Made by a program: the position numbers and the translations under genes
Shown here: positions 55,674 through 64,000 of the stretch, piece by piece
How positions within the stretch are numbered: the stretch's first letter is position 1
Layout: every line of letters starts with the position of its first letter
The notes under the pieces: generated by a model
The model's input: the letters and a program-made list of their open reading frames with translations, nothing else
What the model was told of the DNA's origin: nothing
The model's database searches: none
Assembly (NCBI RefSeq): GCF_003334385.1
Contig: NZ_QOWN01000015.1
Direction: 5' to 3' (one strand)
From: Escherichia coli
GTDB taxonomy: Bacteria; Pseudomonadota; Gammaproteobacteria; Enterobacterales; Enterobacteriaceae
Length of the DNA stretch: 64,000 nt

Positions 55674-56183
55674 TACCCAATTTTTCTGAATCTAAAAAGC
55701 GCCTGCGGGCGGTTTTTGCATGAGATTAATTAACTGAAAATAAAAGGGATTTATTTTCAGGTGTCCATATAATGTCCATCTTTGAAACAAAAAAGCCCGC
55801 AGTTTTTACGCTACGGGCTTTGTTTTTCTTTGTGACTTGCGTGTGAGGGTGCTACTTTCGACCGAACCTTTGGCAACCGGATAGCGGGGGCTTTCACCCC
55901 CGCTGCGGTTTCTTACGGTTTACACTGCAAGAACGCCGCAAATTCTGACCACATGATGTTAAGTCTGAACTCACACGGCGAACGGTGTATCATCCAGACT
56001 GTCAACAACATGGTTAAGCATAAAATGCTCACGATGATCGTTTTTTGCGGCATAGCGCTTGCTCCTTTTTCAAAGAGGCGCTAACCTTCCACTTGCGAAG
56101 GTTAGATGGTTAGGGCCTCGGGTTAAACAAATGTTTGACTCGGGGCCTTTTCACATCCGGCCTTCAGGTAATCCTTCCAGCCG

Positions 56184-56486
56184 TCAGCCGAAAGGCACCC
56201 GCGCGTAATGTACAGTTTTTGACTGGGAGGTGCAATCGCCCAGGGGGAGGCTGAGTTGATCCCTTCCCCGGTGGCATGATTTGAAAGCGTCTGCGGGGAC
56301 GACTCCCCGTTCTTCGGTGGGTTGCGGACGGCATACGGTTCTCACGACAAACTCGTGCGTCACAAAGGTGGCGCTGCATTCAATGTTGTTGCACTGGTAA
56401 TATTTCTCCCTGATTGTTCCTGTATCGTTGGCGTCGCGGCTTGTTCTGGTGCGGGTACTTGCTCCGCAGTATGGGCAAGGATGCAT
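56184..56486 (-). CDS. ogr: Ogr/Delta-family zinc-finger late transcription activator, 100 aa
   Basis: N-terminus MHPCPYCGASTRTRTSRDANDTGTIREKYYQCNNIECSATFVTHE matches the P2 Ogr C-x2-C...C-x4-C zinc finger and flanking residues. Confidence 0.75.
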   Translation of the reverse strand: MHPCPYCGASTRTRTSRDANDTGTIREKYYQCNNIECSATFVTHEFVVRTVCRPQPTEERGVVPADAFKSCHRGRDQLSLPLGDCTSQSKTVHYARVPFG

Positions 56487-56527
56487 GATGGTCCCCCTGG
56501 CTGAAACGGGGTGGGCTCGCGCTCATT

Positions 56528-57673
56528 CTAGCCAGTCGTGGCGCGCTCTGCTATCCAGTCTGCGATTTTTGCTTCCAGCTCCAGTCTGGTGGTGAAGCCG
56601 CTGTCGTCGATGACGTGCTCAATGCGCGAAATAACCCAGTCCTGATTGTCAATGTCGCTCTTGAACCCGGATACCGTGCCGTGCATCTCCGGATACAGGT
56701 CGGCGCGTCCGCGCGCCAGCGTGATGCTGAATTCTGCTGCACCCCGCTGAAGTTGCTGCCAGCGTGCGGCAGCTGCGCGACGCGCGGCTTCTTCGTTCGG
56801 GTAGGTTTTTCTCAGCACATACACATTGCCTTCTGCGCCTTCCATGTATCCACCCTCCCGTGAACTGCTTTTCTCCGGCTTCTGTGTGGTTTTCGCGTTT
56901 CGCTTTTTCACGTTCACGGCCTTCTTCTGGCCGAACTTTAAATCCAGCCAGTAAGCTTTCACTCCGGTATAGGCTTTTCTGTCAGCAATGCGAAAGCGAT
57001 GACTGTCGCCATCCGAGCGGGTCAGGGCGAATGAGGGGAGGGCGCGCCCGCTGGCTGTCACACCGCCACCCGGCAGAATGAACAGCAGGCATCCGTTTTT
57101 TACGGTGGTTATTGCACCCAGCATGTCAGCCATGCGCGTGAGGAACGAGATGTCGCTTTCCTCTGTCTGGTCTGCATGGTCGATTTCGATATTCATCAGC
57201 ATTTCGCTGATTTGTGCTTTCAGTCCGTAACGGTGCGCGATGGCAGATACCACACGCTCAACGGTCACGTCATGCCAGGAGACTTCGCGTTTCACGTTAA
57301 ACTCTTCGCGAAAATCCGCACTGTTCGCGGATATGGTCAGCTTATCCGGCGGACCTTCGTGGCTCACTTCGTCCACCACAAACGTTCCCTTGCGAGTGAG
57401 GCTTTCACCTTTCCATCCCATCGCCAGCGATAATCGTGTTCCGCGTTCCGGAAGTACCACCCCGCCCTCGGCGTCGTCGATTTCCAGTGTCACCCTGTCA
57501 GCCTCAAAACCCCTGTTGTCTGTCATGGTCAGGCTCATGATGCGCTGCGTGATGTTCTTCAGGCTGGCATCTTTCCCTTCCAGTGTGATAGTGAAGTCTG
57601 GCACCCTAACGGTATCTTCCGCTGCATCCAGTGCGCTGTTGATGTGATGTGTTACTGATTCAGTGATGCTCAT
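56528..57673 (-). CDS. P2 gpD-like tail protein (late control D), 381 aa
   Basis: Resembles P2 gpD (…LSLAMGWKGESLTRKGTFVVDEVSHEGPPDKLTISANSA…, …SGFKSDIDNQDWVISRIEHVIDDSGFTTRLELE…). Confidence 0.8.
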   Translation of the reverse strand: MSITESVTHHINSALDAAEDTVRVPDFTITLEGKDASLKNITQRIMSLTMTDNRGFEADRVTLEIDDAEGGVVLPERGTRLSLAMGWKGESLTRKGTFVVDEVSHEGPPDKLTISANSADFREEFNVKREVSWHDVTVERVVSAIAHRYGLKAQISEMLMNIEIDHADQTEESDISFLTRMADMLGAITTVKNGCLLFILPGGGVTASGRALPSFALTRSDGDSHRFRIADRKAYTGVKAYWLDLKFGQKKAVNVKKRNAKTTQKPEKSSSREGGYMEGAEGNVYVLRKTYPNEEAARRAAAARWQQLQRGAAEFSITLARGRADLYPEMHGTVSGFKSDIDNQDWVISRIEHVIDDSGFTTRLELEAKIADWIAERATTG

Positions 57674-57733
57674 GATATCCCTCCCGTGTGCGTATCATCC
57701 CACGCGTACCTTGTCGTTTCTGTCCGGCTCTGT

Positions 57734-57751
57734 TGTAAAAAAATCCCCACA
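57734..57751. promoter_or_regulatory. TGT-N12-ACA dyad, the signature of Ogr-dependent P2 late promoters, in the D/FI divergent intergenic region
   Basis: tgtaaaaaaatccccaca; centre is about 85 bp upstream of the FI ATG (57827) and about 70 bp upstream of the D ATG (57673). Confidence 0.45.
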
Positions 57752-57826
57752 GCCCGCATCAGGTGAGGGCTGTGCGCCAATGGTGGATTATTCAGGCGAG
57801 CATAAACACAACTGATGGTGAATCGT

Positions 57827-62943: not shown

Positions 62944-62945
62944 GA

Positions 62946-63419
62946 GTGATGGTTATGATGATGATTTACGGCATGTTTGTTTTTCAGTTAAGCACACTGC
63001 CACACCAACAAATACAACAGTCCCGTAACTGGAGGCATGTAAAGAACGAGCGAATCAACCGCTCAGCCAGCTGGCAGTATATCGGCGCGGGTGACGATAC
63101 CATCACGCTTTCGGGTTTGCTCTACCCGGAAATTACGGGCGGTGAAGTCTCCCTGACCGCACTGACCAGCCAGGCTTACGTCGGGCGACCATGGCCGCTG
63201 ATTGATGGGGTAGGGCAGATTTACGGGATGTATGTCATTACCGGGCTTAACACCACCCGCTCTGAACTTGATCGCTATGGTCGGGCAAGAAAGATTGAGT
63301 TTACTGTCACTTTTGAGCGTGTGGATGAAGATCTGCGTGAACGTCTTCAGTCCTCGTCGCTTGGTGATCTTGCGAATAACGTCAAAGGTGCCCTGAATAA
63401 TCTGTCCATTCCGGTTTAA
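62946..63419 (+). CDS. Tail protein gpU-like, up to 157 aa (true start may be a downstream Met)
   Basis: …IYGMFVFQLSTLPHQQIQQSRNWRH…DTITLSGLLYPEITGG… resembles P2 gpU; immediately follows T. Confidence 0.75.
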   Translation: MMVMMMIYGMFVFQLSTLPHQQIQQSRNWRHVKNERINRSASWQYIGAGDDTITLSGLLYPEITGGEVSLTALTSQAYVGRPWPLIDGVGQIYGMYVITGLNTTRSELDRYGRARKIEFTVTFERVDEDLRERLQSSSLGDLANNVKGALNNLSIPV

Positions 63420-63424
63420 ATAAT

Positions 63425-63449
63425 AACGCCCTGGTGTCAGGGCGTTTTT
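63425..63449. terminator. Bidirectional intrinsic terminator between convergent gpU and the tail-fibre-assembly-like gene
   Basis: Hairpin aacgccctg-gtgt-cagggcgtt followed by TTTTG on the plus strand and by a T-rich tract on the minus strand. Confidence 0.7.
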
Positions 63450-63454
63450 GCTGT

Positions 63455-63994
63455 TCATCTTTCGGTGGCGGGTTCTTCCGTTGTGGGCCAGCCCACAACG
63501 TAACGCTGAATGGCCTCCGCATCCTGAAGTTCTGCAATCTCTTTTTTCATGTTGCGCTGGCGCACATGAATTTCCATTCCCTTCGCGAACATTGCCTGTT
63601 GCGCGGCTTCACTCAGCGCAATCAGTTCTTCCGCAGTCATGGGGACGTCGTTGTTGTCTGCGTCTGTCCAGAAAAACTTCTCCGGGAGATTGCCTTCTTT
63701 TGCTGCGATAACTGATGGGCCAAGGCGATCCTGTGTTTCCTTTCCATAATCCCAGTTACGGCCATTAAAGCTGAAAATATAACTGGCTGATTCCATTCTG
63801 TTCCGCCAGGCGTTGATCCCGGCGGTTTTGAGTTCTCTGGCTTTTTCCGGGCTGATGGATGGCTGTACATGTTCTGCAATTTCACCGGCCTCTCCTTTCT
63901 GACAAGCGGCATAAATATCCCGCCCGTATGCTTCGGTATCGCTGGCTGTTGCAGTGAAAGGAACCGCCTGCTCAATGTGCTCAAACTTCACCAT
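63455..63994 (-). CDS. Phage tail-fibre-assembly/chaperone-like protein (DUF4376-like), 179 aa
   Basis: Complete ORF with ATG at 63994..63992; C-terminal half resembles phage tail fibre chaperone domains. Assignment from recalled similarity only. Confidence 0.4.
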   Translation of the reverse strand: MVKFEHIEQAVPFTATASDTEAYGRDIYAACQKGEAGEIAEHVQPSISPEKARELKTAGINAWRNRMESASYIFSFNGRNWDYGKETQDRLGPSVIAAKEGNLPEKFFWTDADNNDVPMTAEELIALSEAAQQAMFAKGMEIHVRQRNMKKEIAELQDAEAIQRYVVGWPTTEEPATER

Positions 63995-64000
63995 GCAATT

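Follow-up and report, generated by a model that had tools for sequence, protein, structure and literature searches.

Gene content downstream of serS

The window analysed here is a stretch of 64,000 nucleotides from Escherichia coli (contig NZ_QOWN01000015.1), and its last part, downstream of the serS gene, carries genes of a P2-family (Peduoviridae) prophage (Table 1). Alignment with E. coli K-12 MG1655 covers positions 1-48952 and 52953-55717 of the window, gap-free and at 99.97% identity. The K-12 homology ends exactly at position 55717, and the serS open reading frame (ORF) itself ends at 55673 according to an ORF map of 55674-64000. In K-12 only 238 bp separate serS from dmsA, and the site is empty. 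The DNA from 55718 to 64000 does not belong to this interval of K-12, as a first-pass annotation of this DNA had proposed.

The same annotation had named P2-family tail genes up to the end of the window, namely ogr, D, FI, FII, E/E', T, U and a gene resembling those for tail fibre assembly. Profile searches matched every one of them. Thereby, the contractile-tail set of P2-family phages is complete, consisting of FI, FII, E and E+E' with a -1 frameshift, T, U and D. The slippery heptamer T TTT TTG of E/E' was read directly from the sequence at 59913-59919, and its phase relative to E is correct. From there the -1 frame continues without a stop as far as 60119, overlapping the T start codon ATG, and the Phage_P2_GpE domain falls on residues 139-174 of the conceptual E+E' fusion. 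The product of the ogr-like gene shows 46% identity to P2 Ogr over 54 amino acids (aa). With the tail fibre assembly gene, the window enters an operon for baseplate and fibre that again reads leftward, like ogr and D. Each of the nine visible genes is intact and as long as its counterpart in the near-identical strain E. coli G1/2. No integrase, lysis or head gene (capsid, portal, terminase) was seen within 55718-64000, in agreement with what had been stated for the visible 8.3 kb.

Table 1. Features of the prophage part of the window
Feature	Position	Strand	Evidence and remarks
attL core	55696..55717	+	22 bp, AAAGCGCCTGCGGGCGGTTTTT; hybrid between phage attP and attB, the rho-independent terminator of serS
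attL phage arm	55718..55912	.	no K-12 homology; bidirectional terminator hairpin 55792-55821
putative type I toxin gene of the hok family, 46 aa	55913..56053	-	NCBIfam HokA 1.3e-9, below curated cut-off
putative hok mRNA leader / sok-complementary region	56043..56200	-	Rfam RF01794 (sok), below gathering score
ogr/Delta-like zinc-finger late activator, 100 aa	56184..56486	-	phrog_603 8e-15; NF007241 3.5e-14, below cut-off
D, gpD-like baseplate hub / late control D protein, 381 aa	56528..57673	-	phrog_52 7e-153; Pfam Phage_GPD 6e-16
TGT-N12-ACA dyad TGTAAAAAAATCCCCACA, putative Ogr-binding site	57734..57751	.	D/FI intergenic; sole exact match in phage part
FI, tail sheath, 397 aa	57827..59020	+	phrog_23 4e-113; Pfam Phage_sheath_1, Gp18_domIII_N, Phage_sheath_1C
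FII, tail tube, 170 aa	59020..59532	+	TIGR01611 112.9 bits, above cut-off 102.75
E, tail assembly chaperone	59584..59964	+	Pfam Phage_TAC_7
E+E' fusion	59584..60119	+	-1 frameshift at 59913-59919; Pfam Phage_P2_GpE on fusion
T, tape measure, 943 aa	60112..62943	+	phrog_28 7e-120; TIGR01760 above cut-off
U, gpU tail protein, 154 aa	62955..63419	+	Pfam Phage_P2_GpU 6e-40
Bidirectional terminator hairpin between convergent U and tail fibre assembly genes	63425..63446	.	scan on both strands; -16.1 kcal/mol, z -3.8 and -5.0
Tail fibre assembly gene (gpG-like, DUF4376), 5' end beyond window	63455..64000	-	phrog_1141 4e-72

The attachment site in the serS terminator

Over positions 35001-64000 the window is 99.955% identical to G1/2, with 12 mismatches and one gap of 1 nt. 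The att core was mapped by aligning the K-12 spacer to the left junction in the window and to the dmsA-side junction of the element in G1/2. Both junction alignments overlap by 22 bp, which are the serS terminator hairpin. This core reads AAAGCGCCTGCGGGCGCTTTTT in attB (K-12), AAAGCGCCTGCGGGCGGTTTTT in attL (window) and AAATCTCCTGCGGGCGCTTTTT in attR (G1/2), and the 10 bp CCTGCGGGCG are the same in all three. Judging from where the core mismatches lie, strand exchange took place inside these common 10 bp. Host and phage DNA meet 23-44 nt past the serS stop codon, within the serS terminator, and the prophage boundary is fixed at the attL core. The alignments with K-12 and G1/2 together define the insertion point and the core duplicated on both sides of the element, with attL in the window and attR and int in G1/2.

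A tyrosine integrase resembling P2 Int, encoded at the far end of the element beside dmsA, would recombine attP with the serS rho-independent terminator. The enzymology of this step is that established for P2 Int. Recombination would run across the 22-bp imperfect core and leave a slightly weakened hybrid terminator behind serS. Folding gave -13 kcal/mol with U5 for the hybrid attL hairpin compared to -16.3 kcal/mol with U7 for the serS terminator of K-12. The single indel of 1 nt relative to G1/2 lies inside the attL hairpin, too, at position 55702. For the second hairpin in the phage arm (55792-55821) the terminator scan and folds gave z values of -4.5 on the minus strand and -2.7 on the plus strand.

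Of 5426 complete E. coli genomes, 345 (about 6%) carry an integrase of the same family directly beside dmsA, and the serS terminator is identified here as the attachment site of this family. No papers on serS/dmsA as an integration site were found. The attL junction is present in just 24 of the 5426 genomes. That the phage genes belong natively between serS and dmsA of E. coli, without any insertion, can be discarded in view of the rarity of this junction, the duplicated core flanking the element and the short reference interval of K-12, in which none of these genes is found.

The element in E. coli G1/2 and other genomes

In G1/2 the element lies between serS and dmsA and comprises, by arithmetic, 38,020 bp from core to core. 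Its tail fibre assembly gene has 603 nt and is followed by the fibre gene H and by I, J, W, V, S and R. After R, genes encoding a DUF1378 protein, a DUF6645 protein of 656 aa, LysC, a hypothetical protein, a lysozyme and a hypothetical protein in holin position were found. This lysis region is followed by X, L, M, N and O and, on the opposite strand, P and Q. Then there are genes encoding SSB, the replication endonuclease A and early functions such as a methylase and an exonuclease. At the far end lie a repressor-like gene of the helix-turn-helix type, the integrase gene, attR and dmsA. The P2-type genes Q, P, O, N, M and L and the gene for the replication endonuclease A, all outside the window, are therefore present in G1/2. 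Its prophage annotation contains no pseudogene flags, and PADLOC gave no defence-system match among the full prophage cargo. The DUF6645 protein belongs to phrog_143 (function unknown) and sits together with the DUF1378 protein between the lysis genes and R; neither of the two had a PADLOC match.

Near-identical copies of the element already sit in public genomes. In 13 of the 24 genomes with the attL junction, their attL being at least 94.7% identical to that of the window, an int-dmsA junction follows at a distance of 34.7-38.0 kb, so the element appears to be full-length wherever this attL arm occurs. The same phage was found at a second site, the glyW-cysT-leuZ tRNA cluster, in EC2 (98.6% identical) and at least eight other genomes (range 98.6-99%). 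This second site shows that the phage is mobile and that it swaps its integration modules. Homology of the leuZ-integrated copies begins at about window position 55783 and diverges to its left, which points to an exchange of the att-proximal arm and, presumably, of the integrase module. In STEC2018-607 (NZ_CP075697.1), the attL-serS junction is located at 0.89 Mb and the int-dmsA junction at 4.39 Mb, a distance that hints at an extensive rearrangement of the chromosome, one end of which would lie in this prophage.

We consider it very probable that the region 55696-64000 represents the ogr end, next to attL, of a temperate P2-family phage that is full-length (about 38 kb) and shares its gene order with phage P88. 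The rest of the element would then lie beyond position 64000 in this genome, and the phage is presumably inducible. The first-pass annotation had left three options side by side, the end of an intact prophage, a decayed remnant and a tailocin-like tail cluster. Only the first of them is favoured by the complete 38-kb prophage of G1/2, with int beside dmsA and a second att site, and by the 35-38 kb in the 13 genomes. Its heading, an accessory tail module, is misleading for what is part of a full-length prophage in these genomes. The significance of this finding hardly extends beyond annotation, and no new biology is implied.

Five points weigh against this interpretation. The window ends at 64000, and the head, lysis and integrase genes are seen in relatives, not in this genome. 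Of the 12 substitutions relative to G1/2, ten fall in the phage DNA (8.3 kb) and two in the chromosome (20.7 kb); because of this distribution the prophages of the window and of G1/2 are not clonal copies. The hok and sok matches both stay below curated thresholds, and the positions of the late promoters (see below) depend on our own reading of weak -10 hexamers. Finally, in LR-31 and F11, which carry related integrases at dmsA, the distance from an attL-like sequence to the int-dmsA junction at the same site is only about 12-17 kb. As these elements appear shorter, the serS-dmsA locus is subject to decay.

The last point, together with the end of the window inside the element, would fit a decayed remnant that is truncated or disrupted past the window and retains only the ogr-proximal tail genes. 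Such a remnant is nevertheless improbable given the intact visible genes with the same lengths as in G1/2, the complete element in this near-identical genome and the size of 35-38 kb in 13 of 13 genomes with this attL arm. An R-type tailocin, in the sense of a domesticated bacteriocin cluster of P2-like phage origin with tail genes only, has even less to recommend it and is practically excluded. R-type pyocins are related to P2 tails, and tail genes plus a regulator are all that is visible in the 8.3 kb. A tailocin would consist of tail and lysis genes without those for capsid, packaging, replication and integration. The G1/2 element does not have this composition; capsid, scaffold, terminase, portal, replication and integrase genes are present in the near-identical genomes. 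Furthermore, the element shows the att duplication of a phage and recurs with 98.6% identity at a different att site, indicating that it moves as a phage. It is because of the complete element in near-identical genomes, its size in the 13 genomes and its mobility that we regard a remnant as unlikely and a tailocin as excluded.

Gene order and relationship to P88 and P2

The full-length prophage favoured here belongs to a P88-like branch of the P2 family. Its order of ogr and D (-), FI, FII, E, E', T and U (+) and fibre genes (-) is shared by P88 (NC_026014; Peduoviridae, Xuanwuvirus), the Citrobacter phage Shae_phiSM, the Enterobacter phage phiT5282H (Novemvirus) and the Klebsiella phage Kp4845-1 (Reipivirus). 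P88 also has the same end, with hok (-), ogr (-) and D (-) and the hok gene next to the end. The RefSeq annotation of P88 contains no ogr; by tblastn, an Ogr-like ORF (45% over 86 aa) is found between hok and D. The closest isolated phages, among them P88, P884B11 (also Xuanwuvirus) and Shae_phiSM, show about 70% nucleotide identity, and this over only 52-56% of a tail region of 7.3 kb. For Xuanwuvirus this value covers the tail region, and the gene order is shared. The guide value of the International Committee on Taxonomy of Viruses for a genus is about 70% nucleotide identity over the full length.

At protein level, identity to P88 is 73% for D, 73% for FI, 63% for FII, 77% for U, 39% for T and 31% for E. 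The values for P2 (Peduovirus P2, NC_001895) are 48% for D, 46% for FI, 48% for FII, 49% for U, 25% for T and 29% for E. The integrase of the element (in G1/2) is 52% identical to P2 Int and just 50% to P88 Int, and the serS core is absent from the P88 attP region; a shared att site with P88 was therefore rejected. P88 has a DNA invertase and an invertible fibre segment after U, whereas the prophage described here has neither.

A near-identical isolated phage was not obtained by megablast against 50,697 phage records, in which only the tail fibre assembly gene (83%) and hok (84%) were matched. The tail fibre assembly gene has counterparts with about 83% nucleotide identity in lambdoid phages (PhiR12 series, P-EibC/D/E), and fibre genes are thus exchanged as a mosaic between phage families.

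The prophage resembles P2 in its set of tail genes, including the T TTT TTG frameshift annotated for E/E', in the position of ogr at the att-proximal prophage end with int at the other end, and in a predicted late promoter dyad whose shared geometry would be like that of pP/pO. In P2, however, FI-FII-E-T-U-D-ogr form one co-directional block after G, whereas here FI-U is inverted with respect to both D-ogr and the V-G operon. This inversion had escaped the first-pass annotation. P2 furthermore carries fun(Z) between G and FI, while G and U of our element converge on one terminator, and it has no hok/sok between ogr and attP.

A programmed inversion of FI-U, acting as a switch, was considered and rejected. 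The borders of this segment (57674-57826 and 63420-63454) contain only weak scattered matches instead of flanking inverted repeats. For this reason the orientation of FI-U is regarded as a fixed ancestral rearrangement common to this prophage and P88. Induction of E. coli K88 yielded P88, which forms plaques (PMC5285337), so the inverted arrangement is compatible with phage viability.

A putative hok/sok-type locus between ogr and the attachment site

About 0.5 kb of non-coding DNA had been assumed in the first-pass annotation to precede the switch to phage genes. This has to be corrected, as the switch occurs already in the attL core and the 0.5 kb are phage DNA with a hok/sok-type locus. The Hok ORF reached 37.9 bits with the NF007290 model (cut-off 89), and the RF01794 match covers the full-length model with 48.3 bits and an E value of 1.3e-8 (gathering score 59). 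In G1/2 the matching position is annotated as "Hok/Gef family protein" (WP_001135720.1), and window and G1/2 do not differ inside the ORF. Similar DNA of Stx phages (about 84% nucleotide identity) overlies genes annotated as "MokW-like host killing".

The locus resembles the known hok/sok loci, i.e. that of plasmid R1, the chromosomal hokA-E and hokW of the Stx phages, in combining a Hok-like ORF with an upstream leader of the sok family. It differs from them in matches that stay below the thresholds; furthermore, the minus strand showed no overlapping ORF of 20 aa or more that resembles mok. We read the spacer as a cargo of the hok/sok type (type I toxin-antitoxin) with putative activity.

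The interval between ogr and att (window 55718-56183) carries varied cargo across P88-like phages. One hok/sok copy is present in the element of the window and in P88, and two hok copies were found in KY177 and S19-651. Shae_phiSM has tagO and a hypothetical gene at this position, phiT5282H a gene for a CpdA-like metallophosphoesterase.

Proposed late gene regulation

The intergenic region between the divergent genes D and FI comprises 153 bp and contains the TGT-N12-ACA dyad. In seven diverged relatives the distance of the GTTGT half-site to the start codon of D is 68.5-71.5 nt; to that of FI it is 84.5-88.5 nt in six of these seven. The sequence around this half-site is otherwise diverged among the relatives. 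The exact TGT-N12-ACA was found only in the window and in MSB1_4I; the other relatives and P2 have GTTGT with a degenerate right half. The corresponding P2 element has its centre exactly 55.5 nt from the annotated transcription start site of each of the divergent promoters pP and pO, and about 57 nt from that of pF. Two hexamers resembling -10 sequences, GATGAT (57699-57694, minus strand) and GATTAT (57786-57791, plus strand), would fit the geometry of P2 pP/pO.

We infer from this spacing a shared predicted Ogr site for the divergent late promoters: the single site at 57734-57751 would serve both of them, as at P2 pP/pO. The terminator of the rightward FI-FII-E-T-U operon would be the hairpin 63425-63446, and that of the leftward unit of D, possibly extending over ogr and hok, the hairpin 55821-55792.

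A broader picture can be put forward only tentatively, and we regard it as rather doubtful as a whole. According to it, the stretch between ogr and attP would be a cargo slot of P88-like phages, hok/sok an addiction or exclusion module penalising loss of the prophage, and a single Ogr site would drive both the inverted FI-U operon and the D-ogr unit. The result would be a late-gene circuit that also controls its own activator gene.

Chromosomal backbone

The chromosomal backbone contains no indels over 48.9 kb compared to K-12 MG1655. It follows from this and from the 99.97% identity that the host is a very close relative of K-12, differing within the window only by the prophage. Inside ftsK, at about 50394-50625, direct repeats with an offset of 39 bp and 87-94% identity were observed, which we take to be the repetitive linker-coding region of this gene.

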